This document shows, piece after piece, positions 33,363 to 53,008 of a stretch of 55,015 nt of DNA. Source of the DNA: a virus. Lineage: Duplodnaviria; Caudoviricetes. Numbering within the stretch: position 1 is the stretch's first letter; the number at the start of each line of letters is the position of its first letter. The notes under the pieces were generated by a model that searched no databases, had not been told where the DNA came from, and saw nothing but the letters and a program-made list of their open reading frames with translations. Location: the IMG/VR virus record IMGVR_UViG_3300023179_000134, positions 1 through 55,015 of that record, one strand, 5' to 3'. A program made the translations under genes and the position numbers.

Positions 33363-33363
33363 T

Positions 33364-34884: not shown

Positions 34885-37189
34885 TATACAAAAAATTCTC
34901 AATTTTGAAAATAAAAAATTAGATCCTTCGATTGTAAATAGTGATCAAATAAAATACATTGTTACATATCTTTCTGAGGTCATAGATAATAATCTCGAGG
35001 GCGATATTGTTGAGTTAGGTTGCTATTTAGGAGAGACAAGCAAATATATTTCTAAAACTCTTGAAGTTGCTAAATCTAATAAAAAATATTATGTTTATGA
35101 TTCGTTTGAAGGATTGCCTGATTTATCTAAATTTGAAGAAGGTACAGGTTGGAAGCCCCGAACTCTTAATACAACGGAAGAAGTATTGAGAGCTAATTTT
35201 GAATTGAATAATGTCAACCTACCTATTATAACAAAATCGTGGTTTAAGGATATTAAAGAAGAACAGCTTCCAGATAAAATATCGTTTGCATTTTTAGATG
35301 GTGATTTCTATACTTCTATTTTTGAAAGTTTAGAAAAAATATATAATAGAGTAGTAGACGGTGGATATATATTAGTACACGACTATAAAAGAAATGACCT
35401 TCCGGGTGTTGAAGCTGCTATTTTAGAATATTTTAGACTTAACAATCTTAAATTAAATATAATAGAAGTTTGTGAACAATTAGCTGTAATATGCAAGAAC
35501 AGAGAAATTAAAAAAATAGAACCTCAAAAATCTAAATTTACCATAGTTACAGGCCTGTGGGATATTGGTAGGGACAAGCTTAAAGATGGTTGGTCACGCG
35601 GCTATTCGCACTATTTAACTAAGCTCGAAGAGCTTTTAAAAGCTGATTTTAATTTAATTATATTTGGTGATGAAGAATTAGAGAAATTTGTATTTGAGCG
35701 CCGTGATCAATACAACACACAATTTATTAAGCGCGGTATTGATTGGATCAAGAATATGCCATTTTATAGTAAAATACAAGAGATTAGAACTAATCCCGAT
35801 TGGTATAACCAAGCCGGCTGGCTATCAGAATCAACACAAGCAAAGCTAGAGATGTACAACCCTCTTGTTATGAGTAAGGTGTTTCTTTTAAATGATGCTA
35901 AAATATTAGATAAGTTTGATTCTGAGTTTTTATTTTGGCTAGATGCAGGTATTACAAATACTGTACACCCTGGATATTTTACGCATGATAAAGTATTAGA
36001 AAAACTACCAAAATTTTTAGATAAATTTTTATTTGTTAGCTTCCCTTACCCTGATGGTGGTGAAATTCATGGCTTTACAAGAACAAAAATGAATGAAGTG
36101 GCGCAAACAGAGAACGTAGAGTATGTTTGCCGCGCAGGCTTTTTTGGTGGGCCAAAAGAATTTATTTCTGAAATTAATACTATTTACTATAGTTTATTAA
36201 ATAGCACTTTATCAGAAGGGTATATGGGTACAGAAGAAAGTATTTTTACTTTAATGACCTATCTTCATCCCCATCTTTTTACAAGAGTATCGATAGATGG
36301 AAACGGACTCTTGGGTAAATTCTTTGAAGATTTAAAAAATTTAGATCTTACTGAACATGAGGCTCAGCTAGCTAGCAGGGTATTATCAGGAGTGAGCTTA
36401 TATGTTATAACCTTCAATTCGCCAAAGCAGTTTGAGGTTTTATGCGAATCATATCTTAAGCACCCAGGTTTTATAACAGAAACAAAAAATTATCTTCTCG
36501 ATAACAGTACAAATGAAAAGACTTTTGAAGAATATAGCAAGTTATGTAAAAAGTATAAATTTGAACATATTAAAAAAGATAATTTAGGTATTTGTGGTGG
36601 TAGGCAGTTTATAGCCGAACATTTTAATGAAAGCGATTCGAAGTATTGTATTTTTCTAGAAGATGATATGACACTCTGTACAGAAAACACACCTGTTTGT
36701 AGAAATGGGTTTCCTCGCTATACAAATAATCTTTTCTATAAAATAGTTAAAATTATGGATAAAGAAAAGTTTGATTTTCTTAAGTTTTCTTTTTCTGAAT
36801 TTTTTGGAGATAATTCTATTCAATGGGCATGGTATAACGTTCCTCAGGTTGTAAGAGAAAAGTTTTGGCCAAATAATAAAAAACTACCTAAGATGGGCCT
36901 AGACCCTAATGCACCGAAGACACAATTTAAAAATATAGGTATATTAGACAGTCTAAGCTATATTACTGGAGACATTTATTACTGTAATTGGCCTCAAATT
37001 GTATCTAAAGAGGGTAATAAGAAGATGTTTATTGATACTAAATGGGCGTCCCCCTTTGAACAGACGTGGATGTCGTATATGTATCAACTTACTAAGGAAA
37101 ATAAACTTAACGGTGCACTTTTATTACTATCTCCTATTGAACATAATCGCTTTGACCATTACGCTAATACATTAAGAAGAGAAAACTGA
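34877..37189 (+). CDS. Three-domain protein: TylF/MycF-like O-methyltransferase, HtrL/YibB-like domain and GT-A glycosyltransferase
   Basis: EGDIVELG, YDSFEGLP, FLDGDFY and GGYILVHDY (TylF); TIVTGLWDIGR...FWLDAG...GFFGG (HtrL-like); NLGICGGRQ...IFLEDD (GT-A). Confidence 0.8.
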   Translation: MINIQKILNFENKKLDPSIVNSDQIKYIVTYLSEVIDNNLEGDIVELGCYLGETSKYISKTLEVAKSNKKYYVYDSFEGLPDLSKFEEGTGWKPRTLNTTEEVLRANFELNNVNLPIITKSWFKDIKEEQLPDKISFAFLDGDFYTSIFESLEKIYNRVVDGGYILVHDYKRNDLPGVEAAILEYFRLNNLKLNIIEVCEQLAVICKNREIKKIEPQKSKFTIVTGLWDIGRDKLKDGWSRGYSHYLTKLEELLKADFNLIIFGDEELEKFVFERRDQYNTQFIKRGIDWIKNMPFYSKIQEIRTNPDWYNQAGWLSESTQAKLEMYNPLVMSKVFLLNDAKILDKFDSEFLFWLDAGITNTVHPGYFTHDKVLEKLPKFLDKFLFVSFPYPDGGEIHGFTRTKMNEVAQTENVEYVCRAGFFGGPKEFISEINTIYYSLLNSTLSEGYMGTEESIFTLMTYLHPHLFTRVSIDGNGLLGKFFEDLKNLDLTEHEAQLASRVLSGVSLYVITFNSPKQFEVLCESYLKHPGFITETKNYLLDNSTNEKTFEEYSKLCKKYKFEHIKKDNLGICGGRQFIAEHFNESDSKYCIFLEDDMTLCTENTPVCRNGFPRYTNNLFYKIVKIMDKEKFDFLKFSFSEFFGDNSIQWAWYNVPQVVREKFWPNNKKLPKMGLDPNAPKTQFKNIGILDSLSYITGDIYYCNWPQIVSKEGNKKMFIDTKWASPFEQTWMSYMYQLTKENKLNGALLLLSPIEHNRFDHYANTLRREN

Positions 37190-37230: not shown

Positions 37231-38028
37231 GTGAATTATGTTAATTATGTATTGTCGAGTGTTCAAATCCCTGGGTACCCTTCAGTATTAAATCATTACA
37301 TTTTTTTTGATCCCGTTCTAGGTACAATTGACTACCCGGCAAGTGCAAATGGTAGTTATTTCTCAGAAACAACAGGTACTTTTGTATACCCTGCCACAGC
37401 TAACGGTGGATTATTTTTCCCATGGGGGTATTCCGTTGAAAATACTACACTTAGCGCTGACTTAGGTGTTTTTAAAGGACAAGTTACTCTATTAATTAGC
37501 CCTTCATCTATAGACAATACTTACTTTACCACTTTAAAGATAATTTATGATTTTAACGACAATGACGTTATTAATATTGAAAAGGGTATTGTAGAAAATA
37601 TTTTACCCGGTAACGTCGCATTTCTAGATGCTGGCAACCCAAATGATAAGAATATTTCTCACGTTTATACTTCTAAATCGTTAAGCGGTACAACTTATTA
37701 CCCCACAGTAACTGTTCTTAACGGGAACATGGCGTTAAATGTTTTTAATTTAAAAATTACATTACTTCCCGGTACAGTATTTGATTTTGAAGATTTTCAT
37801 CTTATTAATACATCACAATTATCGAGATTTGATACACCTGATTTCAAGTCTTTAGAAGTTTTTGAGTTAGATGAATCCGATGTTAACTATGTATCTAATT
37901 TTTTACTTATTAGTTCCTATCCCACACCTACACCTACAATCACCCCCTACCCGACACCCACACCATCTGTTACACCTACAGCAACAGTTACCCCCACTTT
38001 AACAAGAACCCCTACCCCATCACCTTAA
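37231..38028 (+). CDS. Virion protein with a C-terminal Thr/Pro tail
   Basis: TAAATA-N5-GTG; ends in about 35 aa of PTPT repeats. Confidence 0.6.
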   Translation: MNYVNYVLSSVQIPGYPSVLNHYIFFDPVLGTIDYPASANGSYFSETTGTFVYPATANGGLFFPWGYSVENTTLSADLGVFKGQVTLLISPSSIDNTYFTTLKIIYDFNDNDVINIEKGIVENILPGNVAFLDAGNPNDKNISHVYTSKSLSGTTYYPTVTVLNGNMALNVFNLKITLLPGTVFDFEDFHLINTSQLSRFDTPDFKSLEVFELDESDVNYVSNFLLISSYPTPTPTITPYPTPTPSVTPTATVTPTLTRTPTPSP

Positions 38029-38040
38029 TAAATATTTACT

Positions 38041-41000
38041 ATGGATGTAATAACATTAAATGACACGAATTTTATAGGTTTATCTGCACGCTATAAAGAT
38101 GATGATGCTTTACAGTTTAATCAATCTATAATTTTTTCTGAGCAGAGCATATATCTTTCTTTAAATGATATTTTAAAAGAAATATACGACAATAAGATTA
38201 ACAATTATTCAAATCTTTTTTTAACTAGAAAAGAAGTTCTTTCTTCAGGATTTAACATAGAAAAGCTTGAGCCTTTAGAAGACGAAGGATTCTCAACATA
38301 TATTGCTGCTAATGCAGCTGGAACAATAGTTCCTACCACAAAGTTCTGGACTGTTGAAGAACCGGCAGTAAATGTAAATGTTGCTCAAGTTAAAGTCGAT
38401 GGTGAGTTTAGTAAAGTTAATAATTCTTATTTTTTTGATATTGAATTGCTTACTGAAAAATTATGTAAAATAACACACGAAAACAATAATGTAGTTAGAT
38501 ATCTTACTGTTGATTATACAGGCAATTTATCTTTTGCAAAAGATGCGGGGTTAGATATTATAGGGCCTTTGAGCCCTCAAATTTTCTATTACGTTTACGA
38601 TAGATCATACAACTACATAGTTCTTATAAAAAATATAAACGATATACCTAAATTCGTTACTTTTAGTGCAAATAATGAGGACCTGGCTTTAACAGATCCC
38701 ATAACAGGTACTAGTATTCCTTACTCTATTTCTTCTGTGTTTAGAGTGCGAGAACGAAATCCATTACCTAATAGAACTGAGCTTATTGACCCGTGGGTTA
38801 GCTACACAAAGAACTTTAAGACGAATTCTCAAGATATTAATATAGATAGAAGCTATGATAATATTAACAGTAATTACTTGCTTAATAATGAATATTATTC
38901 AATATCTGGAAACTATATAGATTTTAATGTATTATCACTTAAAAACGCTTTTACACCTGAATATAACATATCACGCGCAAACCCATTTTTTGACGAACTT
39001 AATGTAGAGTTTAGAGATTATCAGAAACTACATACAGGCTCTTATCAAAATTTAGGTTCAGACAATATTACCGCTGGATATGAAGCATACACAAATTCAA
39101 TTATATTAAAAAAAGATAAGGTAACGTACTTTCATATACCGCAAGTTTTTTACCCGTTTTTAAGGCTAAATATTAACGATTCAGGGCTTACAGATGCGGG
39201 CGCTATAGCAGGCGATCACCCGCTTAAATCAGATAAAATTTTTAAGAAAAAAGCAGATTATAAATATACTTCTAATTTTGGTGATACTGCAGAAGAAAAT
39301 TCAGGTGAATTTTTATGTGCGTGGCTTTCAGGTAATACAAATCCAAGCGTAAGACCTATATGGGTTGACAGATACTATAATCCAAAAAAGGTTTCAGGTT
39401 ATCAAGCGCTTACAGCTTCTGACTTTAAAGCTATAAAATATATTTCTAATTTTGATTGTTTAGTCGATAAAGCTTTCGAAACATTCGCTAAAGAAGTAGA
39501 CGTTTTTGATAAGCCTTCAGATTTAATTTTTGAAAAAGGAACATATTATGCCTACCATCACTACGGTCCTAGCGATGTCGACAAGTTTATAGAAACTCTT
39601 TCCACAGATTTAGTAGAAAAGGGTATTAATTCGTATAAGTTTTATAACGGCTCAGACGCTACATATTCAGCTATTATAAATGATAGTAATGAAATTTCTG
39701 AGTATATTTTTGACGGCACAATTTACGGCTCTACTTCAAGATTATCAGCAGTTCAAGATTCTAATCAATTTACACTAGTATTTGATGGCTACAGCTCTGA
39801 TTGGAATAAACCACTAGGAAACCAATTAGTTGGAAACTATGATCGTGATGGATTTGGTATATTTAATGAAAATTTAATAACACCTACTTTATTCATTCCG
39901 TTCTTAAGCGGTATGTACGTTACTAATTTAAATTATAATGTACTTAACACATTAAAGTTCGATAGTAATATTACTGGTATAATACGACTACAGGGTATGA
40001 ATGATTTTTATGGAATTTTCGAGGACAATAGCTTTAGAAGATTTAATTTAAATTATTCTGAAACTAGAAGAGCATATCCTTCTGATATAACTGATGAATT
40101 AGGAAAAGTTAGAGGTGTTGATTATAATGAAACAGATGCAAGGGCTTTAATAGGCGATGATCCAGGTATTAAAAAAATAATGAAACTAGATTTACTATCT
40201 CATGAAATTACTGATATTACTACAGGTACCTTTAATTTAACAAGATACCCTAGAAGAATATCTAGAGGGCTTAATATTAACTCAACAAACTCTATTGTTT
40301 TATATAATGGTGTGATGTATTTAACGCAGGGCAATAAAGCGGTGCGCGCTAAAGATACAATATTTTATAATTATCTAGACAAACAAATTTTACAATGGAA
40401 AGACATTACAAATTTAACAAGTACAAATCCAATTACAGCGTTTATTTCGCCTACTACTATAAATGATTTTTCCGTTGACTATAATAGTGATTTGTGGATA
40501 GTATTTGATAACAATAAATTTGCAAAATATAGTTATGACAGAGTATTTATTTTATCAGGGCAGTTCGTAGAAGACGACGATAAAAACTATACAAATTATA
40601 AAATCGATTTTACAGCAGATTTTAATTTAGGCATTTACAATCAGTATGCTGTAATAACTAGACAATCGTATGAAGGGGATAAAAAGAATCTTCAATTTAT
40701 AAAAATATCTTTAAGTGGTATTACAGTAAGCAGAGATTATTTTTCGGAATATTCGCCTCAAGGTAATAATTATATATGCAAAACCGTACTTTCTAAAGAG
40801 GTTTTTACAACCTCAACAACATTATCAAGTAAATATTCTAACGGTATTATAATAAATCAAATAATACCATTACAAGACTACACTTCAATAGTTGCATTTA
40901 GTGCAAACACATCAAATTATTTTTATCAATATAAAAATAATGCTTCTAATTTCTCTAATTCAAAATTCCTAACAACATATGTTAAAGACAAATATCCCGC

Positions 41001-41628
41001 AAATAGTATTAATGTAAAAGCTCAACTAACTAATATTTTTAATCAAAATGACACAGTATCAACAGAAATTATTTTTAATTTATCTGCTCTTGATCCAGGA
41101 TATCATAATTTTGCTGTTAGATTTGATGCAGATGGCGGATATATGCATTTGTTTATTGATGGGCAGCAGCAAGGTGTTACAGAATTTTCACCTAGAAAAT
41201 ATAAATTTAGTAATTTAATATATAGGCCTTTTCTTATAGGTAGTTCGAGCTATGCTTATTCTCTTCCTTTATTTTCTTATTTAAAAAATTCTTCGTTTTT
41301 AACATATGATTTTAGAGTTAAAAACTTCTACATATACGACACGCCGTTATTTGATTTTGATATAATGTTCCACGCGAGAAAAGGAATGAATATACAAGAT
41401 ATTGTCTTTGATGTCGCATGCGGCAGACGCAATTATTCAGAAGAAATAGAAAGATATTTTAAATTAGCTGTGCCTGGGTCTAAATCTACACAATATAATT
41501 TAGTTATTAAAAATTCAGGAATTAGAGATTCAGATCTTCAGTATGCTTTAGAGCAGAGAATTTATGAAATTATAAATAGCACAGCTCCTGTCTATTCAAA
41601 GTTAAATACTATAAAGTGGGTTAATTAA
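38041..41628 (+). CDS. Large virion protein with a LamG/concanavalin-like C-terminal region
   Basis: GYHNFAVRFD...MHLFIDG...FLIG...KNFYIYD; TAAATA upstream. Confidence 0.55.
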   Translation: MDVITLNDTNFIGLSARYKDDDALQFNQSIIFSEQSIYLSLNDILKEIYDNKINNYSNLFLTRKEVLSSGFNIEKLEPLEDEGFSTYIAANAAGTIVPTTKFWTVEEPAVNVNVAQVKVDGEFSKVNNSYFFDIELLTEKLCKITHENNNVVRYLTVDYTGNLSFAKDAGLDIIGPLSPQIFYYVYDRSYNYIVLIKNINDIPKFVTFSANNEDLALTDPITGTSIPYSISSVFRVRERNPLPNRTELIDPWVSYTKNFKTNSQDINIDRSYDNINSNYLLNNEYYSISGNYIDFNVLSLKNAFTPEYNISRANPFFDELNVEFRDYQKLHTGSYQNLGSDNITAGYEAYTNSIILKKDKVTYFHIPQVFYPFLRLNINDSGLTDAGAIAGDHPLKSDKIFKKKADYKYTSNFGDTAEENSGEFLCAWLSGNTNPSVRPIWVDRYYNPKKVSGYQALTASDFKAIKYISNFDCLVDKAFETFAKEVDVFDKPSDLIFEKGTYYAYHHYGPSDVDKFIETLSTDLVEKGINSYKFYNGSDATYSAIINDSNEISEYIFDGTIYGSTSRLSAVQDSNQFTLVFDGYSSDWNKPLGNQLVGNYDRDGFGIFNENLITPTLFIPFLSGMYVTNLNYNVLNTLKFDSNITGIIRLQGMNDFYGIFEDNSFRRFNLNYSETRRAYPSDITDELGKVRGVDYNETDARALIGDDPGIKKIMKLDLLSHEITDITTGTFNLTRYPRRISRGLNINSTNSIVLYNGVMYLTQGNKAVRAKDTIFYNYLDKQILQWKDITNLTSTNPITAFISPTTINDFSVDYNSDLWIVFDNNKFAKYSYDRVFILSGQFVEDDDKNYTNYKIDFTADFNLGIYNQYAVITRQSYEGDKKNLQFIKISLSGITVSRDYFSEYSPQGNNYICKTVLSKEVFTTSTTLSSKYSNGIIINQIIPLQDYTSIVAFSANTSNYFYQYKNNASNFSNSKFLTTYVKDKYPANSINVKAQLTNIFNQNDTVSTEIIFNLSALDPGYHNFAVRFDADGGYMHLFIDGQQQGVTEFSPRKYKFSNLIYRPFLIGSSSYAYSLPLFSYLKNSSFLTYDFRVKNFYIYDTPLFDFDIMFHARKGMNIQDIVFDVACGRRNYSEEIERYFKLAVPGSKSTQYNLVIKNSGIRDSDLQYALEQRIYEIINSTAPVYSKLNTIKWVN

Positions 41629-43245
41629 ATGAATATCTCATTAGAAATACAAAATGAAGGTTTAATTTACGATAGATATTTAGGTGAAGAGCTATCTTTA
41701 CCATACAATTTAGATGATATTAAAGTTCAAGCAAATGATACTGTATCATCTAGTTTAGTTAACTTAAAATTTAAGCATTTGTATGATAATTTCTTATATC
41801 TCTATAAAAATACTCTTCTCGCTTCTAATGTAATTCCCGTTTCATCTACAGCTATAGCTGGTATTACCGCGTCGTCTACTAATTTTACTTGGTATAGGGG
41901 GTTAAGTTCTAGAGAATTTAGAGCTTTAGCAAACAACACATCTTTACAAGGTGTTGATAATACAAAAGCAATGACATTAGTAAAAAATAGAGATTTTGAT
42001 AGATATTCATTATTCACTTCATCTGGAACTGCTATTAATATTTTTAACTTTGATTATAGCGCAACCTATATAGAAAAAGTCTTGACTATAACTCAACTTG
42101 ATCAAGGATACGGAGTACCTTTTAAAAGTGTGTGTGATTTTGAAATAAGCGGTAATAATCTTTTTGTTTTAGACTGCGATCTTAATAGGCTTATTAAATA
42201 CGATGCAAGCGGGTTTTTAGAACTTAACACGGTTTCTAACAATAGATTATTTTACATTGATTCAATTGGTAATTATGGAGATCAAAATGCTAAAACAGAT
42301 TTTTATGACCCTCAAGGAATTACCATTTTTGATAATTTTATTTTTGTATTAGACTCGGGTAACAAATGTATTAAAAAATATGATATTAATTTAAATTGGA
42401 AATTTACATACAGGCTTTATAAGGACTTTTTATCTGCATTTCCCGTAGACATTGCCAATGACAGCACTGGCAATTTGTTTGTTTTAACAGATAATAATAA
42501 GTTATTTATTTATAATAATGAAATTAGTTCTAAAAAAATTATTGATTTAGAACCGCTTAGAGAAGGTGACGAGCAATTTAAAAAACTAGTTTTTTCTAAA
42601 AGCGATTCGAATATATTTTATCTTTATTCAGATAAAAATGTTTATAAGAAACTAGTAAATAAGCCATACAGTACAGTTGGAAAATATTTGCTGTATTTAT
42701 TTAAATATGATGACCCTAATGAAATTATTAAATCATTCGCTTCAGCACCTACATTAGACAATAAAAGCGACACTAATATTTTATTTTCTGTCTCCGGTAA
42801 TATAGGTAAGTTTGGATATTTTTATGATAATTTAAATTTATTTGATATTTTAGCTGTTCGCGATTTTGATATATATAGCTTTGAAGAGAATAACTTTAGC
42901 AGTAATGAATATATTCAAAATTGGGTTTTTAATAAAAATATATCAAAAATTTTACTTGGCATGATGAGATTGAGAGATGAAATTATTGGAAAGTTTATTG
43001 CATCTAAAGACTACAAAGGCAACGTCACTTTTACTGGTACAAGGTACTTATTACCAACAGAATTAAATTCTGTTTATTTTGAACAGGATATGACTTTTTA
43101 TGTTGGTAATAATGAGCTTTTAACAAGTAGTATTATTAATAGACCTCTTATAAAGCTGTATAATATTCAAGAATCTCTTTTAAAAATTCTTGATGCTGAA
43201 ATTTTAAGAGTTCCTAACGACAACATCCCAATTTATTTAAATTAA
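41629..43245 (+). CDS. Virion protein with an NHL-like beta-propeller
   Basis: [22 protein letters not shown]...[14 protein letters not shown] and [15 protein letters not shown]. Confidence 0.6.
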
Positions 43246-43246
43246 T

Positions 43247-46200
43247 ATGGCAAAATATATTTTTAGACTTAACACAGGTAAAGGGCAGCCATATGTTCCG
43301 CCAGTACTGCCTTCTCCAACCCCTACTGAGACTGTAACACCAACAGTAACACCTACTATTACTGGAACATCTAATGTTGCGCAGTCACCCACACCTACAA
43401 CTACTGCAACACCAACAAAGACACCGACACCTTCAACTACTTCTACGAATACGCCAACCCCTAGCGTTACCATTACAGCTACACCAACATTAAGCATAAC
43501 CCCTTCAGCCTCTGTAACACCGACAACAACTACCACGTCGACAAATACCCCAACACCTACTACTTCACCTACAACAACAGAAATCAGTACACAAACACCA
43601 ACAATCACCCCTACTAATACTTTAACGCCTAGTTCTACTGTAACATCTACTGCAACATTAACGCCTACACCTTCAGTTACTGAAACAGTAACACCTACTA
43701 CTACACCCACCGAAACACCGACTTCTACAGTAACACCTACTACTACACCTACTGAAACACCGACTTCTACAGTAACACCTACTACTACACCTACTGAAAC
43801 ACCTACTCCGACAGAAACACCTACACCTACAGAGACTATAACACCGACAACTACAACAACAGTTACAATTACCCCCACAAGCACTAATAATCCCACGCCT
43901 ACCCCTACAGAAACACCTACAAATACACCTTCATCTACTGAAACATCTACACCTACTCCTACAGTAACGCCGACGATCACCCCTACTACTTCTGAAACAT
44001 CTACACCTACTCCTACAATAACACCATCTGAGACAGCTACAGTAACACCGTCAGTCACAGAAACACCTACTTTAACTGTTACACCTTCTATTACAGAAAC
44101 GTTAACCCCTACTAATACCCCCACATGTACTTTAACAGTAACACCCACAGAAACTGTAACACCGACGCCGACATCCACAGAGACGCCTACTCCTACCGTA
44201 ACACCAACAGCTACAGTTACCGTAACGCCTACAAGAACATCAGCTGAAACGCCTACTCCTACTGAAACAGTAACTTCTACACCGACTACAACATCAACCG
44301 TAACACCAACCGTGACACCAACAGTTACTGAGACTGCTACTCCAACTACTACAGAAACGCCTACACCTACCGTAACCACGTCTATTACAGAAACACCTAC
44401 TTCGACAGAAACCCCGACTCTCACTCCTACGGTTACACCTACAGTTACTAAAACTTTAACGCCAACCGCTACTTCTACAGAAACCCCCACAAACACACCT
44501 ACCTCTACACCGACAATAACACCTTCAAATACAATCGATTTAACTGCTACACCAACAACAACTTCTACACCGACCAAAACAGCTACGCCAACGCAGACAA
44601 CGACTGTAACACCTACTACTACCGTAACACCTACTACTACAGAAACGCCCACGGAAACACCTACCGTAACACCTACTATTACACAGACATCAACAGTGAC
44701 CCCTACTCCTACAGTTACCGTAACGCCTACAAGAACATCAGCTGAAACGCCTACTCCTACTGAAACAGTTACATCTACTCCTACTGTAACCCCCACTAAT
44801 ACTTCTACGGTAACACCTACTCCTACTGTAACTGAAACAGCAACACCAACCGTAACGCCTACAAGGACATCAGCTGAAACGCCTACTCCTACTGAAACAG
44901 TAACTTCTACTCCTACTGTAACGCCTACACCTACTGAAACTGTAACTTCGACACCAACCATAACACCTTCTGCAACGCCTTCTGTAACACCTACAAGAAC
45001 ATCAGTAGAGACACCTACACCTACTGAAACTGTAACTTCGACACCAACCATAACACCTTCTGCAACGCCTTCTGTAACGCCGACGAAAACATCAGCAGAG
45101 ACACCTACGCCTACCGTAACTGTAACTTCGACACCGACTACAACATCAACTACAACACCAACCGTAACACCAACCGTAACGCCTTCTAGAACATCAGCAG
45201 AGACACCTACACCGACACAGACAGTTACATCTACTCCGACGTTAACGCCTACTGTAACACCTACTGTAACGCCTTCTAGAACATCAGCAGAGACACCTAC
45301 ACCGACACAGACAGTTACATCTACTCCGACTACAACATCAACTACAACACCAACCGTAACGCCTACAAGAACATCAGCAGAGACACCTACACCGACACAG
45401 ACAGTTACATCTACTCCGACGTTAACGCCTACTGTAACACCTACTGTAACGTTAACACCTACTATAACACCTTCAATAACCTCTACTTCTAGACCTCTAA
45501 GCCTATGTGTTTCTGGTGCAGGCTTTACTGCCGTAAATGATAATTACAGCTTTAATTCATTAACTAATAGATGGGAATCTAGTTCAGGGACGTACAGATT
45601 ATATAGAATCGGAGGAAGCCAGTGGGTTATTCAATTACTTAGCGGTACCGCTATCTATTATCAAAATAGTAATACTAGCAGCATACCCCCGTCAACCGGT
45701 TGGACGGTAGGTACAAGCGGAACTGCTCCTGCACCCACAGTAGCACAAGAAATTTGTGCATCACCTACACCAACGCAGTCACCAACAGTTACATCTACGC
45801 CTACTATAACACCTACAGTTACACCTAGCGGTACTGCAGCATCGACACCTACACCAACACAGTCACCTACTATTACGCCTAGTGTAACCATAACATCTAC
45901 ATCTACGCCAACGCAAACACCCACACTGTTTGCATTAGCTGCTTTTGACGAAATTCAAAATTATATAACTGCTACGCCTAGCCCTACAGTTACATCTTCT
46001 CCTACAGTGACACCTAGCACTACAATTACCGCTTCGCCTTCACCAACAGTAACACCCTCCGTTACACCTTCTGTTACTGTAACACCTTCTGTTACTAATA
46101 CACCATCTATAACACCAACATTTACACCGACAAGAACTCTTACACCTACAATAACACCTTCTCAAACAAGAACACCAACACCAACAGATACACCGATAAA

Positions 46201-46531
46201 CGGATCGTATTGGACAACTAGTATTGTAACCGGTACCGGGGCAGGCAATATTTTATCGTTATGCACCGGTGAAGCCGGTATTAACCTTGTAATGACTACG
46301 GGAGCTCAGTTCCAAACTAACTGCGTAAGCGATGGCTCAGGTGATTTTGATTCAACATTAATACGCGTAAATGGTGTTGATTACGCAAATATAAGCTGGA
46401 ATAACAGATCTACAACAAACAGCTTATTTAGGTTTAGAATAAACTCTTCAAGCCCTTGGTATTATTGTTATTACAAGAGAGGACCAGGATTCCCAAATAT
46501 AGTTAATTTCCCTCAAGATAATCTTACTTAA
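43247..46531 (+). CDS. Mucin-like protein with a very long Thr/Pro/Ser stalk and small Cys-containing globular domains
   Basis: About 725 consecutive aa of TPT/TETP/PTVT repeats. Translationally coupled to the upstream gene. Confidence 0.8.
43310..45490 (+). repeat. Low-complexity coding repeat (acacctac-rich) with internal higher-order duplications
   Basis: 36-bp units near 43686-43800. Recurrent [13 protein letters not shown](E/Q)TVTSTPT blocks from about 44220 to 45450. Confidence 0.9.
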
Positions 46532-46567
46532 ATCTAAGGATAATGTTCAAAATTAATAAATAATATT

Positions 46568-49500
46568 ATGGCTGGTAATGCAAGATTTCATAATAAATGG
46601 CATAGAAGAAATCATCACTCTTCACCATCAATAAATTACCCCGATTCAGCTACAGACCCTATAGCTTCTGCTGCAGAACCGTTTCAGGGTGAAATGGTTA
46701 TAAATGGTTATTTAAGCGCACATGGTGACGCTTTTATTGACGGTGATACGACAATTCAAGGCAATCTCTCTGTATATGGTGATTTATCTTATTTTGACAC
46801 ATATGTTTCCGTTACAAGCTCTCTAAGCGTTGTTAATACAGGACCTGGCCCTGCAGTGGTTGTCGAGCAATACGGTAATGAGCCTATAGCAAGATTTTTA
46901 GACCCAACCAATACAAGCGGTGGAACGAGGTATGCTTTTTCTATTGAAAATGACGGTTACATCGTTGCAAACGGTACTACCCCTGCTTTAAAATTTGATC
47001 AACAAAGTCAATCAGTACAAAAACAATTAGTTACAGTAAACGGAAATATTTACTCTAATAGAAGTGTTGTGTGGGAAACTCCTATGGCTAATACAGTCTA
47101 TGTCAGCACTACTGGATCAGATTTAAATAGCGGTTTAAATCCTTCACAAAAGGTAAAAACGATTAAAAAAGCCGCAAAAGTTGTTTTTGATACATATGGC
47201 CCTAATAAAGCAACCATTATTGTTGAGGCGGGAGATTATACAGAGAACAATCCAATTTATATTCCCGCAGGTACATCAATGATTGGTGAAGGGTTTTTAA
47301 GACGAGTAAATATTAGACCCTATAACAGACAACTTGACATACTATGGCTTAATAATGGATGCTACATCTGGGGGTTTACTTTCAGGGATCATCTTGACCC
47401 GAGCTCTGCTACTGCATTTCCTAATCTTTTGTCCGGAACGCCAGCTTATAAAGTTGCGTTTCAAACTCCAGGTTATGAAATTGATGTTACTCGTCCAGGA
47501 GGACCGTTTGGATTTCCTATAGTATCTAAACCGTATATTACAACCAGTCCCTACACACAGGGCTGTTCTTCTATTAATAGATTTTTGTATGTACCAATAC
47601 AACCCGATCTTTATAATAGCGGGTTTGTCTCAGGATCACAATCTTTTAATTACGCTTTAACAAATGGAGCGCTAACTACCGCCTATATTTTAAGCTCTTT
47701 TAATAACATTACAAGTATTATTGAATCCGGTTCAGCTGTTGCTCCTGCGCAAGTTAATTTTCCCGTGCCTACAGGAGCAGCTGCAGCAGTATCTCTTATT
47801 AATCTTAATAAAACAGCTATTCAACAAGGTACAGTAAATTATGTTAATGATAAATACCCAACTTTTATTTATAATCAAAGCAAATGTTTTAGAGATGTAG
47901 GGTTTATTCTAGATGCTATTACTTACGACTTGACTTACGGTACAAATTTAAGCTCTGTCTCTGCTGGTTTGTTTTATTATGCCGGTAATACTAGCTTAAT
48001 TGCAGGCCAAGAAAAACAGACAATAGATGCAATTAATTATGCAAACTTTTTAGTAAATTATGTTATTGCAAATTCAGCGGTACCTATTTACCATCAACAG
48101 TTTAATACCAGTTATACACTCGCTTCTACTCTTACTTCATACGTAACTATTTGCACGAATACGATTAATAATATTATTCGTAATGGTATAGGCACTCTCC
48201 CAGCACCAACTTATTGGACGCCTAGCGCTCTCGCTGCAGCTGAAGCTAATGATTTACTTAATATTAATAAACCGTTTATTGGTAAGACTGTAATTAATTT
48301 TGTTGACAAAAATTTTCCTGGGTTTGCTTATAATAGAACAAAATGTGAAAGAGATACAGGGTTTATTATAAACGCAATAGTAGGAGATTTAACTAACGGT
48401 AATAATTTAAGTTCTATTTATGCAGGTAGTCAATATTATTCAGGCTCAACAAGCTTAATTAAAGGTCAGGAAATTCCCACTATAGCTGCAATTCGGTATA
48501 TAGACTTTTTATCGAGAAATATTCTAACTAATACTATTGCAATTACCTCTCAATCATTTAACCCTTATCTCTCATCCGGAAAATTTTCAATATTAGATAT
48601 TGATAGATCAATAGATACTATTAACAAAATTATCATAACACAAGATATACCTGCTCCTGTTTATGATATGGACCAATATTATAATCTATCTCTTACTAAC
48701 GGTGGTAACACATCAGCGTTCTTACTAAGCACTTACGATACTATTGTCGGTGTAATAAGCTCAGGCCCTGCAGGCGCACCACCAATTATAGCTACACCCG
48801 CACCTGCTGGAGCATCTTCAGCAATAGCTTTATTATCTAATAATAGAACTTATATTCAAGAGCAGACGATAAATTATATAAATCAACAGTTCCCTACACT
48901 ACGCTATAACGAATCAAAATGCTTTAGAGACGCAGGATACATGGTCGATGCTGCAATTTCAGACTTAACTAACAATACTAATGCTAGTGCAGTTAACACC
49001 GGGCTATTTTATTGGCTTGGGACAAGCAGTGTAATTAAAGGTCAACAATATCAAACAATTTCTGCTATAGAGTATCTTAATAGCATGACTCAAGATGTAG
49101 TTACTAATACCCTTATTGATGCAAAAAGTAACGCTGTATGGTTACTTTCAGCTAACCGTACATTTATACAAAAAGAAGTTATACAGTATATGGATAAAAC
49201 TTATCCTACTTTTGTTTACAATAAAGATAAATGTGAACGCGATGTGGGTTACATTGTTGATGCTGTAATTCATGATATTACATATAGCACTAATGCAAGT
49301 GCGGTAAGTACGGGGGTATTTTATGTAGGCGGAGCAATTGCAGGTCAAGAAGTGCAGACTGTAGCTGCTATTAATTATGCAAGATATTTAATGAAAGACA
49401 TTGTACAAAATATTCCTGCAAGAAATATAGATGCAGGTTGCGGTATTAGAGTAGATGGTGAGCTTGCATTAGGATTTTTAAGAAGCTTTGTAACAGATTC

Positions 49501-50335
49501 ATTTACTCAATTTAATCAAGGCGGTAAGGGCATTCACGTTATTAATTGCGGATATGCGCAGCTAGTAAGTACCTTTACAATTTGTACAACAGAAGGCGTA
49601 ATGTGTGAAACAGGAGGTAATTGTAGTATCAGCACCTCCAACTGCTCGTTTGGCTTGTCAGGGTTAGTAGCAACTGGTAAATCTAAATTTCCTGTACTAA
49701 CTGGCTATCAATACATAACTACACCTCTTGCAGAAAACTTTTTAATAGTTCAAGATGTAACTCCTAGACCGTTATCTGCATTTGTACAAGCTTTACAAGC
49801 TGGAAGCGAGCTAGAAGGTATTCCTGTTGAAGAACCGTACAATGGATTACTTGTAAATGTTGATGACGACCCTGCTAGCGATTATGATATACTACTTAAC
49901 CCAGATGGTCTAACAAAATATCATGGTATTAAAGCGGTAAGTGCGCTTAGTACGCCTTACCCGCCATTTACATACAGATTAACACTTGAAAGAAATGTTC
50001 AGGCTCCTCTTACCGCCTCACAAACTAACCCAAAATATGTAGAGTTTTATCTTAGATCGCAAATTGCTTCAAGTTCTCACGCTTTTGAATATATAGGCAC
50101 AGGAATAGAACTTGAAAAATCAGTCCCTGCTTTAGGTGGTAAGGTTAATAATGATAATGAAGCCGTATATTCAGATAATGGAATAGTGTATTATTCAAGT
50201 ACTAACGAAAGAGGCGACTTTAAAGTAGGCGGTGGATTTACAATTAAGCAAGAGAAAGGAACAGTTGAAGGTGTTGACTTTAATAAGTCAATTCTTGCGC
50301 TAGTAACACCTTTAATATTGAGTCTAGATAGCTAA
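46568..50335 (+). CDS. Large tail fibre/appendage protein with a beta-helix-like region and four internal repeats
   Basis: VYVSTTGSDLNSG...KTIKKA...IIVEAGDYTE; four Y-N-x-x-K-C-x-R-D-x-G repeats; YSSTNERGDFKVG near the C-terminus. Confidence 0.65.
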   Translation: MAGNARFHNKWHRRNHHSSPSINYPDSATDPIASAAEPFQGEMVINGYLSAHGDAFIDGDTTIQGNLSVYGDLSYFDTYVSVTSSLSVVNTGPGPAVVVEQYGNEPIARFLDPTNTSGGTRYAFSIENDGYIVANGTTPALKFDQQSQSVQKQLVTVNGNIYSNRSVVWETPMANTVYVSTTGSDLNSGLNPSQKVKTIKKAAKVVFDTYGPNKATIIVEAGDYTENNPIYIPAGTSMIGEGFLRRVNIRPYNRQLDILWLNNGCYIWGFTFRDHLDPSSATAFPNLLSGTPAYKVAFQTPGYEIDVTRPGGPFGFPIVSKPYITTSPYTQGCSSINRFLYVPIQPDLYNSGFVSGSQSFNYALTNGALTTAYILSSFNNITSIIESGSAVAPAQVNFPVPTGAAAAVSLINLNKTAIQQGTVNYVNDKYPTFIYNQSKCFRDVGFILDAITYDLTYGTNLSSVSAGLFYYAGNTSLIAGQEKQTIDAINYANFLVNYVIANSAVPIYHQQFNTSYTLASTLTSYVTICTNTINNIIRNGIGTLPAPTYWTPSALAAAEANDLLNINKPFIGKTVINFVDKNFPGFAYNRTKCERDTGFIINAIVGDLTNGNNLSSIYAGSQYYSGSTSLIKGQEIPTIAAIRYIDFLSRNILTNTIAITSQSFNPYLSSGKFSILDIDRSIDTINKIIITQDIPAPVYDMDQYYNLSLTNGGNTSAFLLSTYDTIVGVISSGPAGAPPIIATPAPAGASSAIALLSNNRTYIQEQTINYINQQFPTLRYNESKCFRDAGYMVDAAISDLTNNTNASAVNTGLFYWLGTSSVIKGQQYQTISAIEYLNSMTQDVVTNTLIDAKSNAVWLLSANRTFIQKEVIQYMDKTYPTFVYNKDKCERDVGYIVDAVIHDITYSTNASAVSTGVFYVGGAIAGQEVQTVAAINYARYLMKDIVQNIPARNIDAGCGIRVDGELALGFLRSFVTDSFTQFNQGGKGIHVINCGYAQLVSTFTICTTEGVMCETGGNCSISTSNCSFGLSGLVATGKSKFPVLTGYQYITTPLAENFLIVQDVTPRPLSAFVQALQAGSELEGIPVEEPYNGLLVNVDDDPASDYDILLNPDGLTKYHGIKAVSALSTPYPPFTYRLTLERNVQAPLTASQTNPKYVEFYLRSQIASSSHAFEYIGTGIELEKSVPALGGKVNNDNEAVYSDNGIVYYSSTNERGDFKVGGGFTIKQEKGTVEGVDFNKSILALVTPLILSLDS

Positions 50336-50719: not shown

Positions 50720-51613
50720 ATGGCTGATTCTATATCAACCATAACTGGAAAAGTAAAATTAAGAACGCCTACACAAGCAGAAGCCTTGTCATCGCGTTAT
50801 ACTTTTTTAAATCTACAAAATGCCGAGCCTAATTTAGGAATACCTACACCCCCAGGTGTTTTAAATGAATATCCTGGCGACCCAGGTATAAGATATGCAT
50901 TGCTTTCAAATAATATAAATGGGCTATCTAGTTGGAGAGTGTGGTCGTACGATAATCCAAAAATAGCAGCCCATAGTGTTGAAAATTCTATTGCATTAGG
51001 TAATAATTCAAACCCCGTAAATACCAACTCACTTGTTTATAGTAATTATACATATTCACAAAATAACATCTATAATAGTCAGTCTTTCAGTGACTATTCT
51101 TTTAACGTATTTGCTATTAGTGGAATATATCTTTTTGACGCAACTACTATCGGTGATCCATTAAGCGCAACAGCTTTTATAGTTACTGAAGATGGGTTAG
51201 TAGGTATTGGAACAGAAAACCCTACTGCACCGCTTACTGTACAAGGAAATATAAGTGCCAATGGTAGTTTCTTTTTAACCGACAATGCAAATCTTGGCAA
51301 TACTAAAAACGACATACATACTCTAAGAGGCACTGTACGTTTTGCAGATAGTTTTAGCGCCCCATTATTATTTGGCAATAATAACACTGGGTATGATGTA
51401 AACCTCTATCGTACTGCAGCTAATATATTACGAACTGATGATTCATTTGTATGTAGTAGTGTTAGCGCTGTTAATGCATTAACAGGCGCAGAGATAACGC
51501 TTACAAACTCACCGACTGTAAGCAGCACTGTAGTATCATTAACTGCATCTGAAGAGTTTTTAGCAATAAATATAAATGGTAAAAAAAGAGCTATAAGATT
51601 ATGGGATTATTAA
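50720..51613 (+). CDS. Tail fibre-associated protein
   Basis: RYTFLNLQNAEPNLG and a VGIGTENPTAPLTVQGNISA fibre-type motif. Confidence 0.6.
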   Translation: MADSISTITGKVKLRTPTQAEALSSRYTFLNLQNAEPNLGIPTPPGVLNEYPGDPGIRYALLSNNINGLSSWRVWSYDNPKIAAHSVENSIALGNNSNPVNTNSLVYSNYTYSQNNIYNSQSFSDYSFNVFAISGIYLFDATTIGDPLSATAFIVTEDGLVGIGTENPTAPLTVQGNISANGSFFLTDNANLGNTKNDIHTLRGTVRFADSFSAPLLFGNNNTGYDVNLYRTAANILRTDDSFVCSSVSAVNALTGAEITLTNSPTVSSTVVSLTASEEFLAININGKKRAIRLWDY

Positions 51614-51614
51614 T

Positions 51615-52133
51615 ATGAGCGAATTTATTAAACAACAACAAATATTTTCAGATGTTAATTTAAAAAACCTTACTTCAGATATTTATGTAGATGGCACAGA
51701 CAAATACATTGTAATCAACATTAATGGTATACAGAGCCTAGTAAAATATATACCACCGACGCCTACCCCCACAGTAACACCTACAAAAACACCTACTCCC
51801 ACGCCAACACCGACAATAACGCCCTCCATAACACCATCGTTTACACCTTCGCCAACACCTACTATGCCATTTCAGTTTTTAGTAAGCTCTACTAACCCTG
51901 TGTATGTAACATCATCTGTAGTACCTCCTGGTGTTTATACAAAAACATACAGCGGGACGATGTATTTTTATTCAGGTTATCTAGTAACATATTACGTTAT
52001 GCATAATGGAACTAATTGGGTTATAGCGGACGATAGCTATGTTCCAAATATTTACGACACTAACCCTTCAGCAACAAATCCAAATTATGTGCCTAGAACT
52101 GGTTGGACAAACGGTACTATAATTACAGCATAA
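51615..52133 (+). CDS. Small virion protein with a Thr/Pro linker
   Basis: [16 protein letters not shown] linker between two short domains. Confidence 0.6.
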   Translation: MSEFIKQQQIFSDVNLKNLTSDIYVDGTDKYIVININGIQSLVKYIPPTPTPTVTPTKTPTPTPTPTITPSITPSFTPSPTPTMPFQFLVSSTNPVYVTSSVVPPGVYTKTYSGTMYFYSGYLVTYYVMHNGTNWVIADDSYVPNIYDTNPSATNPNYVPRTGWTNGTIITA

Positions 52134-52538: not shown

Positions 52539-52551
52539 ATGTCAAAGAACA

Positions 52552-52625
52552 TAGCGGGGGTTGGATTTGAACCAACGATCTCCTGGTTATGAGCCAGACG
52601 AGTTACCAGACTTCTCTACCCCGCG
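52552..52625 (-). tRNA. tRNA-Met(CAT), initiator (fMet) type
   Basis: CGCGGGGTAGAGAAGTCTGGTAACTCGTCTGGCTCATAACCAGGAGATCGTTGGTTCAAATCCAACCCCCGCTA. C1:U72 mismatch, A11-U24, CAT anticodon, no encoded CCA. Confidence 0.93.
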
Positions 52626-52630
52626 ATAAA

Positions 52631-52667
52631 TATTTAATAGTATATATACTAGCACTATATTATTCAA
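52631..52667 (-). promoter_or_regulatory. Tandem promoters for tRNA-tmRNA: sigma70-like plus late TAAATA
   Basis: TTGAAT-N17-TATACT (52667-52639), and TAAATA (52636-52631) 5 nt before tRNA base 1. Confidence 0.6.
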
Positions 52668-52681
52668 GCTTAAATAATTTT

Positions 52682-53008
52682 ATGTTTATAAAAAAGAAAT
52701 CCTTCGTATTTAAGACTTTATCACCTATTAAAACAGTAAAAGAAAATGACAAATTTGTCAAGGATATTGCTAACCTTTTAGATATGAACATTATTTCCGG
52801 CCCACATAGTCAATATATATCTGATAAAGGTAACGAAGGTGTATCCTCAGTAACAATAATTAAAACTAGTCACATATGCGTACATTCATGGGATAGAGTT
52901 TCACCCGGTCTTATTCACTTAGATATCTTCTCTTGTAAAAATTTTAGTGTTAGTAAGATAAAATCATTTTTAAAAAAGAGATTTGAAATAGTCGGTAAAT
53001 TTAAATGA
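52682..53008 (+). CDS. speD: S-adenosylmethionine decarboxylase-like (pyruvoyl-dependent) proenzyme
   Basis: GVSSVTIIKTSHICVHSW...HLDIFSCK. Start reassigned to ATG 52682 (TAAATA-N5). Confidence 0.75.
   Translation: MFIKKKSFVFKTLSPIKTVKENDKFVKDIANLLDMNIISGPHSQYISDKGNEGVSSVTIIKTSHICVHSWDRVSPGLIHLDIFSCKNFSVSKIKSFLKKRFEIVGKFK

Follow-up and report, generated by a model that had tools for sequence, protein, structure and literature searches.

The DNA analysed here (the window) is the whole of IMG/VR record IMGVR_UViG_3300023179_000134, a viral contig of 55,015 bases. The subject of this study is an open reading frame (ORF) of that contig, at 43247-46531 on the + strand, whose product carries a very long stalk of threonine and proline. 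The gene lies in a tail-fibre/baseplate module, between a gene for an NHL-repeat protein and a gene matching family phrog_5342, downstream of gp25-like and gp6-like genes. A run of sugar-handling genes, which includes a GT60-type glycosyltransferase gene, lies ~11 kb upstream inside the same structural block. Taken as a whole, the observations are best explained by a flexible virion tether of the tail module that displays fast-evolving tip domains and is probably O-glycosylated, an explanation in which we place about even confidence. That the gene encodes a real, expressed structural tether is probable. The features of the protein are as follows.

43247-46531, + strand: target ORF with an ATG start, 1094 residues
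43247-43321, + strand: conserved N-terminal module of ~25 residues, from the orthologue alignment; proposed virion anchor
43313-45490, + strand: stalk 1, a (Thr-X)n low-complexity stretch of 726 residues, from composition and repeats
44126-44128, + strand: lone Cys294 inside stalk 1, in the context TPTCT
44740-45420, + strand: higher-order 90- and 192-nucleotide (nt) repeats within stalk 1, from Tandem Repeats Finder (period 90, 5.7 copies, 81%; period 192, 2.5 copies, 82%)
45491-45766, + strand: small all-beta domain bounded by Cys754 and Cys837, from strands predicted by AlphaFold2 (AF2)
45758-46195, + strand: stalk 2, 146 residues (residues 838-983)
46196-46531, + strand: C-terminal all-beta tip domain of 111 residues (residues 984-1094) and the stop codon, from AF2 and profile A1

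The translation agrees with the original prediction, made from the DNA letters, of an N-terminus, a stalk, a Cys-flanked domain, a second stalk and a Cys-containing C-terminal domain. The N-terminus of ~20 residues reads as residues 1-22, the Thr/Pro/Ser stalk of ~725 residues as 726 residues (residues 23-748), and the small domain placed at about 45490-45760 as Cys754-Cys837 (nt 45506-45757). The tip domain contains three cysteines (C1006, C1026 and C1074). A hydrophobic island of 13 residues at residues 894-907 (nt 45926-45967) interrupts stalk 2.

Threonine makes up 38.7% of the target, proline 16.2%, serine 10.1%, valine 7.3%, and glutamate, alanine and isoleucine 3.7% each; T, P and S together reach 65% overall. 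Low-complexity sequence, called from 30-residue spans with at least 60% T+P+S, covers residues 12-758, 826-900 and 901-997. Within stalk 1, 84% of the threonines have a threonine at i+2, with X mostly P, V, E, S, T, I or A, and the commonest tetrapeptides are TVTP, VTPT, PTPT and PTVT. The stalk contains no F, W, Y, M or H, one G and one C, and has a net charge of ~-27 (37 E, 1 D, 4 K, 7 R). The single glycine in 726 residues rules out a collagen-type fibre or G-X-Y shaft, and no fibre family or trimeric folded shaft (beta-helix, coiled coil or collagen) of a canonical fibre was found in the target.

The long Pro/Thr/Ser domains (726 and 146 residues) are built of degenerate tandem repeats, as mucin domains are. 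Tandem Repeats Finder reported 28 overlapping rows of degenerate arrays with periods of 12-192 and 63-100% matches (63-92% in most rows). The DNA pattern ACNCCNACNNNNACNCCNAC, which encodes T-P-T-x-T-P-T, occurs 52 times in the window, always on the + strand, where 0.00 are expected (100 shuffles); 34 matches lie in the target, 14 in the gene at 28248-30614 and 4 in that at 51615-52133. Gel-forming mucins carry Cys-rich flanking domains of the von Willebrand factor D (vWF-D) or cystine-knot type; the flanking domains of the target contain two and three cysteines, with no Pfam family or solved-fold match found for them. Family searches with the target gave nothing in NCBIfam and, in PHROGs, only phrog_15511 (unknown function), on low-complexity sequence. 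PF04886 (PT repeat) was not matched at E ≤ 0.001, although the composition filters of HMMER may suppress such matches.

Selection and relatives of the stalk gene

Codon usage in the stalk resembles that in 12 other genes of the window (ACA 0.49 vs 0.45, CCT 0.61 vs 0.49). Six copies of a T[RK]TS[AV]ETPTPT unit have the same residues encoded by differing codons, which confirms the earlier claim that synonymous positions have diverged between repeats while the frame stayed intact. The matching codon usage and the differing codons in same-residue repeats indicate that the repeats are old, rather than a recent slippage burst or a chimera. Comparison with the related contig L001, whose NHL gene is 84% identical to that of the window, showed positional correspondence over the first ~300 stalk codons, that of the lone Cys among them, with 77% identity. 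Over these codons the nonsynonymous divergence (dN) is 0.17 and the synonymous divergence (dS) 0.57, a dN/dS of 0.30 that indicates purifying selection and is a rough ratio, since a low-complexity alignment flatters identity. The NHL gene and its L001 counterpart give a dN/dS of 0.064 with dS saturated. The indels relative to L001 span 4, 6 and 20 residues and correspond to repeat units. A recent slippage expansion was rejected on the equilibrated codon usage, the 63-92% likeness of the repeats and the positional orthology with L001. The selection on the protein suggested earlier is upheld by this ratio and by the conservation of the N-terminal motif and the tip domain in orthologues; judged from these alignments, the reading frame and the composition of the stalk are clearly maintained. 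An antisense ORF of 604 residues (43237-45051, Val/Gly-rich) was rejected as a gene, being the in-register complement of the ACN/CCN codons and thus a composition artefact.

Related contigs were sought in IMG/VR with the upstream NHL and the downstream fibre proteins, which gave 10 distinct contigs with a readable slot; L002 (4 kb) stopped short of the slot and was left out. One or two Thr/Pro-stalk genes occupy the slot next to the fibre or the NHL gene in all 10, and comparison of the repeat length across these relatives showed stalks of ~92 to 1037 residues in the same slot.

L003: one protein of 1151 residues with an uninterrupted stalk of 1037 residues
L119: stalk of 500 residues
L115 and L116: stalk of 443 residues each
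L005: two genes, stalks of 159 and 351 residues
L004: two genes, stalks of 158 and 325 residues
L117: two genes, stalks of 92 and 714 residues
L118: two genes, stalks of 93 and 660 residues
L114: stalk of 108 residues; NHL gene absent and gene arrangement different
L001: stalk of at least 295 residues, the contig ending inside the stalk

Eight of the nine N-termini read (including that of L004, not that of L114) share the N-terminal module, with the consensus M-x-K-[YF]-[IV]-F-x-x-[NKR]-x-G-x-G...[VI]-x-P-x-L-P. In alignment A3 (the window and seven orthologues), F6, P19, P22 and T25 are invariant and the consensus is M-x-K-Y-I-F-R-x-N-x-G-x-G...V-T-P-I-L-P; the module may anchor the protein to the virion. 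The C-terminal domains of the orthologues are recognisably homologous at 12-31% identity. Thus, the orthologues point to a common design with a conserved short N-terminal module, a freely variable spacer and a fast-diverging tip. Exactly one stalk Cys, always in the context TPTCT and located at residue 183-301, was found in each of the five single-gene long stalks inspected (window, L001, L003, L115 and L119), whereas six further stalks have none; this residue could serve for crosslinking or attachment.

A hairpin-like motif is present in three proteins of the window, namely in the N-terminus of the target (43250-43310), in a 172-residue protein (51700-51760) and in a 297-residue protein (51550-51610). 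It reads DKYIVININGIQSLVKYIPP before the Thr/Pro linker of the 172-residue protein and EEFLAININGKKRAIRLWDY at the end of the 297-residue protein, whose C-terminal ...ININGxxxAIRLWDY recurs in L003 and L005. The shared motif may be a common docking element.

The stalk length had been called exceptional for a phage protein, which does not hold for metagenomic phages: besides the 1037-residue stalk of the orthologue, Thr/Pro runs of 1129 and 1397 residues occur elsewhere. A 184-kb contig (L008, 3032-12391) encodes a protein of 3120 residues with Thr/Pro runs of 616 and 1397 residues, a 297-kb contig (L015, 4667-12163) one of 2499 residues with runs of 1129 and 897 residues, and a further viral contig an open-ended protein with a run of at least 746 residues. 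Small Cys-containing domains punctuate the long runs in all three proteins. Those of L008 and L015 share a Cys-rich N-terminal region of 320 residues, and the L008 contig carries a GT60-type gene (60% identity, one in-frame TAA). Among nine named isolates scanned, three have matches to the TPTxTPT pattern, scattered over many sites.

A search of 1.84 billion representatives with the tip domain profile A1 gave 32 proteins at E ≤ 1e-3, and 12 of these reach E ≤ 1e-10. The domain stands singly behind Thr/Pro linkers (P0018, P0024, P0030, P0033), in four to eight tandem copies in proteins of 700-1100 residues without a Pfam family (P0008-P0012, P0014), and together with collagen repeats (P0020); by these architectures, the family behaves as a bead-like surface module. 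The top profile match, P0004 (2733 residues, SprB repeats, 27 stretches), covers only profile positions 51-89 and was not counted as a relative. P0018, a 335-residue fragment, corresponds to the last 346 residues of the target at 55% identity and comprises the small domain, stalk 2 and the tip; it keeps the island of stalk 2 (FAL...NYIT) as FALQALDDVDNYIT. AF2 predicts the island of the target as helical with low confidence. Relatives of the small domain were found in P0018 and in P0036 (491 residues, E 2e-6), which has three copies by reading, and the C-terminal end of the protein encoded at 51615-52133 is weakly similar to it (pairwise E 0.003).

AF2 prediction of the tip domain with 20 sequences gave an eight-stranded all-beta structure with a predicted local distance difference test score (pLDDT) of 82.0 and a predicted template modelling score (pTM) of 0.77. 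Prediction of the last 346 residues gave beta strands in both domains (block pLDDT 64-83; 64-81 for the strands of the small domain) joined by a disordered linker. The top Foldseek rows for the tip domain are immunoglobulin (Ig)-like chains, none at E ≤ 1e-3, and no Pfam Ig family was matched. tblastn against phages gave one match for the tip domain (E 0.3) and none for the small domain, and a word-indexed search of proteins of 601-1915 residues with residues 984-1094 gave none at E ≤ 0.001. In the ESM Atlas, the small domain scored 0.87-0.88 to unnamed clusters and the tip domain had no usable match.

The two neighbours that define the slot are the following.

41629-43245, + strand: NHL-repeat protein, upstream neighbour (PF01436, E 3e-6)
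46568-50335, + strand: tail-fibre/baseplate-type structural protein of 1255 residues, downstream neighbour (phrog_5342 tail fibre, E 2e-82)

The stop codon of the NHL gene ends 1 nt before the ATG of the target. The NHL gene is syntenic in nine of the 10 related contigs, and tblastn of its product against phages gave no match. The 1255-residue neighbour matched 153 phage records by tblastn, named Synechococcus, Prochlorococcus, Cyanophage or 'Marine virus' (one 'uncultured'), and the annotations among the matches listed are structural, tail fibre, baseplate wedge or hypothetical protein. Nearly all large ORFs of the window lie on the + strand, and this block encodes the morphogenesis proteins of a T4-related myovirus: large terminase, sheath, tube proteins, baseplate hub, a tape measure protein of 640 residues, gp25-like and gp6-like wedge proteins and then large fibre-like genes. 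Genes for a dUTPase and a clamp loader also lie within it. The nearest named phage is the cyanophage P-TIM40 (sheath 33.6% identical), and megablast of 40000-50000 against GenBank phages gave no match. GC content is ~26-46% per kb and ~32% outside the stalk. Runs with matching reads are labelled lake water or freshwater metagenome and come from two studies; no RNA run is listed among them, which is neutral as to expression. The source is taken to be an uncultured freshwater T4-related myovirus. A scan for sigma-70-type promoters (70 found vs 66.3 expected) and one for the motif TATAAATA (10 found vs 17.9 expected) were uninformative. A tRNA-Met gene at 52551-52626 (- strand) shares bases with the beginning of an S-adenosylmethionine decarboxylase-like ORF (52589-53664, + strand, PF02675), after which comes a 2OG-Fe dioxygenase (PF10014) gene.

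The GT60-type enzyme and Thr-Pro sequences

The sugar-handling genes and the other Thr/Pro-bearing genes of the window are as follows.

30655-31923, + strand: PF11397 'Glycosyltransferase (GlcNAc)' protein, GT60-type (E 8.2e-69); proposed initiator of stalk O-glycosylation
32706-33362: match to a phage glycosyltransferase family
33229-34884: ORF with a weak GT25 match (E 0.00099, below the gathering score)
34877-37189, + strand: fusion of a TylF-type methyltransferase (PF05711, E 1.5e-23) with an HtrL/YibB-like domain (PF09612, E 7e-13); proposed glycan-tailoring partner
28248-30614, + strand: 788-residue protein with Thr/Pro linkers that join an N-terminal domain to non-repeat segments (PF01483 P_proprotein, E 1.9e-12, residues 671-786)
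51615-52133, + strand: the 172-residue protein, with the hairpin-like motif, a Thr/Pro linker and a small domain

Thr/Pro-bearing genes lie on either side of the cluster, at 28248-30614 and 37231-38028. The proprotein-convertase P-domain (PF01483) of the former is unusual for a phage structural module. The latter encodes a 265-residue protein that ends in a Thr/Pro tail of 47 residues with no domain after it; the next gene follows 13 nt on, at 38041, and the same arrangement is found in L001 and L005.

The 30655-31923 product scores 233.2 bits against PF11397 (gathering score 21) and belongs to that family, which we take to be CAZy family GT60; it also matches phrog_24687 (E 3e-167). The metal-binding motif of the GT-A fold is DxH, and the product has it within QLDSHHRF. 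No hydrophobic N-terminal segment was seen by reading, and a PDB sequence search found no relative among solved structures. In two reports, protist GT60 enzymes are described as polypeptide alpha-N-acetylglucosamine (GlcNAc)-transferases that act on Thr (acceptor peptide KPPTTTTTTTTKPP; PMC3769586) and start mucin-type O-glycans on Thr-rich domains (PMC8724618, PMC3769586). A literature search did not confirm that Dictyostelium PsA has GlcNAc-modified PTVT repeats, and no weight is placed on this point.

IMG/VR holds at least 455 stretches with close relatives of the enzyme, and the locus counts given here are for the best 80 of these 455; among GenBank phages, only four records have such relatives (XacN1, Xoo-sp13, CM1 and RAS14), of which XacN1 is a jumbo phage and CM1 and RAS14 are Stenotrophomonas phages. 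Q[LI]DSHHRF is kept in 79 of the 80 loci. In 67 loci the distance between the TylF/HtrL gene and the gene for the GT60-type enzyme is at most 10 kb, and the other cluster genes are that close in only 5-18, which suggests a conserved pair of GT60 and TylF/HtrL genes accompanied by variable tailoring genes. A Thr/Pro run of at least 30 residues lies within 10 kb of the enzyme in 37 loci, and one of at least 100 residues in 29.

Counts of the TPTxTPT DNA pattern were compared between genomes with and without the enzyme, with the reversed pattern as a control (0-2 matches throughout). The enzyme-bearing records G001, G002, G003 and G005 have 46, 106, 71 and 127 matches, the enzyme-bearing isolates XacN1, Xoo-sp13 and CM1 have 51, 51 and 22, and G006-G009, large contigs chosen without a Thr/Pro ORF near the enzyme, have 46, 51, 43 and 3. 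The pattern is absent from all six isolates without the enzyme (P-TIM40, S-SM2, pelagiphage Mosig, RSL1, phiKZ and RSL2); their lack of the enzyme is taken from the GenBank search above. Overall, at least 22 matches were found in 10 of 11 enzyme-bearing records vs none in six without the enzyme, in a small sample with self-chosen negatives and lineages that are not independent: G001-G003 are related to the window, the three enzyme-bearing isolates are maybe one clade, and G006-G009 were picked for the enzyme.

The XacN1 homologue, ORF334, is 46.5% identical to the enzyme of the window. Translation of two regions of XacN1 showed Thr-Pro linkers of 10-60 residues in eight ORFs, which include a paralogous array of proteins of ~400-750 residues, large proteins beside the tail sheath stabiliser gene and one very large ORF. 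The linker loci (AP018399) are 124048-133104 (the ORF232-237 array), 249342-261711 (ORF369-372) and 272200-280671 (ORF384). The report on XacN1 describes two glycosyltransferases, one of them the ORF334 homologue, and 'at least two glycoproteins' in the virions (PMC5852040). ORF232-237, ORF369-372 and ORF384 are candidates for the unnamed virion glycoproteins of that phage.

Proposed mechanism and alternatives

We infer glycosylation, virion location, anchoring and a binding function alike, and propose the following mechanism. The protein would be a monomeric flexible tether within the tail-fibre/baseplate module, with the ~25-residue N-terminal module docking the chain on the particle. The (Thr-X)n stalk would form an extended, protease-poor spacer, which should not be able to collapse because it has no hydrophobic residues and a Pro every few positions. 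The length of the stalk would evolve freely by gain and loss of repeat units, an easy evolutionary dial. One or two distal all-beta domains would make the first, reversible contact with a target on the host or in its surroundings and then hand the particle over to the fibres and the baseplate, and contact at a distance would give the virion a larger capture radius. In the cytoplasm, the GT60-type enzyme would start a glycan on Thr, and the neighbouring glycosyltransferases and the methyltransferase would extend and tailor it. Dense glycans would make the stalk stiffer and longer, in the manner of a mucin bottle-brush, approximately doubling its reach and shielding the chain from proteases.

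The original prediction held that the stalk, if extended as glycosylated mucins are, could rival the tail in length. With the rules of thumb of 0.31 nm per residue for the stalk contour and 0.15 nm per residue for a tape measure protein, the contour of stalk 1 is ~225 nm and the tail predicted from the 640-residue tape measure protein ~96 nm, in agreement with the prediction for the contour length only. However, the root-mean-square (RMS) reach of a worm-like chain is shorter, 21-66 nm: 21-30 nm for a bare stalk (persistence length 1-2 nm) and 47-66 nm for a sugar-stiffened one (5-10 nm), with assumed persistence lengths.

Glycosylation of the stalk by the GT60-type enzyme falls a little short of an even chance in our estimate. 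The term mucin, used in the original prediction, is plausible given the GT60-type gene 11 kb upstream and the co-occurrence of such enzymes with Thr-Pro linkers, but unproven; tethered-tip protein is the better name. More tentatively, we suggest a phage mucin-type O-glycosylation system that operates in the bacterial cytoplasm in a large group of uncultured aquatic phages. The GT60-type enzyme would start the glycan on the Thr of (Thr-X)n or Thr-Pro sequences, variable partner enzymes would extend and methylate it, and stalks and linkers of tail-module proteins, some of 1000 residues or more, would become bottle-brush 'phage mucins' whose length, adjusted by repeat gain and loss, tunes the reach of the tip.

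Several points weigh against a glycosylated, host-binding tether. No Pfam family was found in the 1094-residue target at E ≤ 0.001. Fold searches with the tip domain gave nothing at E ≤ 1e-3 in the PDB with Foldseek (E ≥ 0.066), a best Z of 3.9 in VIA and nothing in BFVD (E ≥ 0.11), and the small domain had no match among solved folds (best Z 4.5); these nulls do not establish a new fold, nor do they show that no known fold is present. Because Pfam is silent and no solved fold matches, receptor or host binding by the all-beta tip domains is suggested by analogy only. The best-studied cytoplasmic member of the enzyme family reportedly transfers GlcNAc onto one hydroxyproline of Skp1, not onto Thr-rich domains. 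One of the large enzyme-bearing contigs has only 3 pattern matches vs 1 for the control, in the small sample described above.

The other points on this side also speak for a virion tether with a bare stalk, in which the Thr/Pro composition by itself would make the spacer extended and protease-resistant, with the glycosyltransferase cluster serving DNA hypermodification, a host polysaccharide or another virion protein. No Thr/Pro-rich ORF lies within 10 kb of the enzyme in 43 of the 80 loci, and in XacN1 the enzyme gene is not beside the Thr/Pro genes, with no Thr/Pro-rich ORF of at least 150 residues within 12 kb of it. The 34877-37189 product has a weak match to phrog_842 (beta-glucosyl-HMC alpha-glucosyltransferase, a DNA glucosyltransferase; E 8e-6), so that the cluster could act on DNA or host glycans, and a dUTPase is encoded in the window. 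Thr/Pro linkers can function without sugars, and unglycosylated ones are common in bacterial proteins. However, members of PF11397 modify polypeptides, the Thr-Pro pattern goes with the enzyme, the cluster of the window is flanked by Thr/Pro-bearing genes, and XacN1 virions reportedly contain glycoproteins (PMC5852040). A bare stalk is, on balance, rather unlikely.

A protein that never enters the virion and works in or on the infected cell, such as a discarded assembly spacer or scaffold or a decoy, with a gene position that reflects late co-expression only, is improbable. It would agree with the lack of visible trimerising fibre shaft elements, the single Gly, the silence of Pfam and the presence of non-structural genes (dUTPase, clamp loader) in the structural block. 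However, the slot between two structural-type genes is conserved in all 10 contigs, the conserved docking-like N-terminus and the fast-diverging tip follow the usual pattern of host-contact proteins, and the tip domain also occurs alongside collagen repeats in fibre-like proteins (P0020).

The repeat length was also compared with read contigs, since repeats might have been inflated or wrongly joined in a short-read assembly. Run X1 is possibly the source sample, and its Logan contigs showed 0 differences at 42800-43741, 43774-44240, 44269-44738 and 45422-47000. A run from a second study has exact pieces with short gaps, among those listed, over 42893-44240 and 45632-46566. Most of the stalk is thus matched exactly. 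At 44738-45422, only pieces of 63-85 nt are among those listed and no read contig bridges the stalk; the copy number of the repeats at 44740-45420 (~227 residues) is therefore not independently verified, which also counts against the reading proposed here. Alternative joints were seen in read contigs (for example 43809 to 44244). In the closest relative, L001, the 139.6-kb contig stops at locus 12539, inside the stalk gene after 307 codons, where the repeat probably broke the assembly. A modest error in repeat copy number is quite possible. That the extreme length is partly an artefact is very unlikely, given the first three 0-difference pieces, which cover 42800-44738 (~500 residues of the stalk), the match to the second study, degenerate repeats (63-92% in most rows) that assemble more reliably than perfect ones, independent assemblies with stalks of 1037, 500 and 443 residues in the same slot, and a frame that stays open through 1094 codons.

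Comparison with known systems

Pro/Thr linkers, phage appendages and phage-encoded glycosyltransferases are known kinds. Full-text literature searches, with most subscription journals outside their coverage, returned no description of long Thr/Pro stalks in phage proteins; in the literature thus searched, the scale of the stalk, its conserved slot in a tail module and the way in which a GT60-type enzyme goes with Thr-Pro sequences across several hundred contigs of uncultured phages are undescribed. Should the stalk prove to be a glycosylated tether, phages would possess a counterpart of mucin-type glycoproteins on the host-facing part of the virion, built by an enzyme family whose study has so far concerned protists and the cytoplasmic modification of Skp1. 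This would provide a mechanism by which phages of sparse planktonic hosts enlarge their capture radius, would explain the glycosyltransferase clusters inside the structural modules of many large aquatic phages, and would yield a sequence rule for metagenomic virion glycoproteins, namely Thr-Pro linkers together with a PF11397 gene. Even without sugars, the range of stalks from 92 to 1037 residues in one slot is a clear example of phage appendage length evolving by repeat slippage.

The Pro/Thr linkers of bacterial and fungal glycoside hydrolases are repetitive spacers of tens of residues between folded modules and are often O-glycosylated. The stalk resembles them as a Pro/Thr spacer, but makes up two thirds of a 1094-residue protein and does not match PF04886. 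T4 fibritin whiskers, Hoc Ig-like decorations and the phiCbK head filament are flexible appendages that raise the encounter rate. Like these, the target looks accessory and non-essential and would make the first contact beyond the particle. Unlike the target, those appendages are folded coiled coils, Ig domains and filaments, and no sequence or fold relation to them was found.

Giant virus fibrils and the capsid glycans of PBCV-1 are examples of virus-encoded cytoplasmic glycosylation of surface proteins, including sugar methylation. The fusion of a TylF-type methyltransferase to a glycosyltransferase-like domain in the window is reminiscent of this machinery, whereas giant viruses and PBCV-1 infect eukaryotes and use other enzyme families and other acceptors. 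In mycobacteriophages, glycans are found at the C-termini of capsid and tail-tube subunits, as cited in PMC12619734. XacN1 is like the window in its phage-encoded glycosyltransferase (the ORF334 homologue) and its Thr-Pro linkers, and at least two of its virion proteins are reportedly glycosylated; its linkers have 10-60 residues vs 726 in the window, and its authors draw no link between the enzyme and Thr-Pro sequences in the accessible text.

The named GT60 enzymes of protists are Golgi membrane proteins with secreted or glycosylphosphatidylinositol (GPI)-anchored acceptors, whereas the phage enzyme would have to act in the bacterial cytoplasm on a virion protein. The mucin-like domains of Trypanosoma cruzi and Dictyostelium nevertheless resemble the system of the window, which likewise combines a long, Thr-rich, Pro-containing unfolded domain with a PF11397 enzyme.

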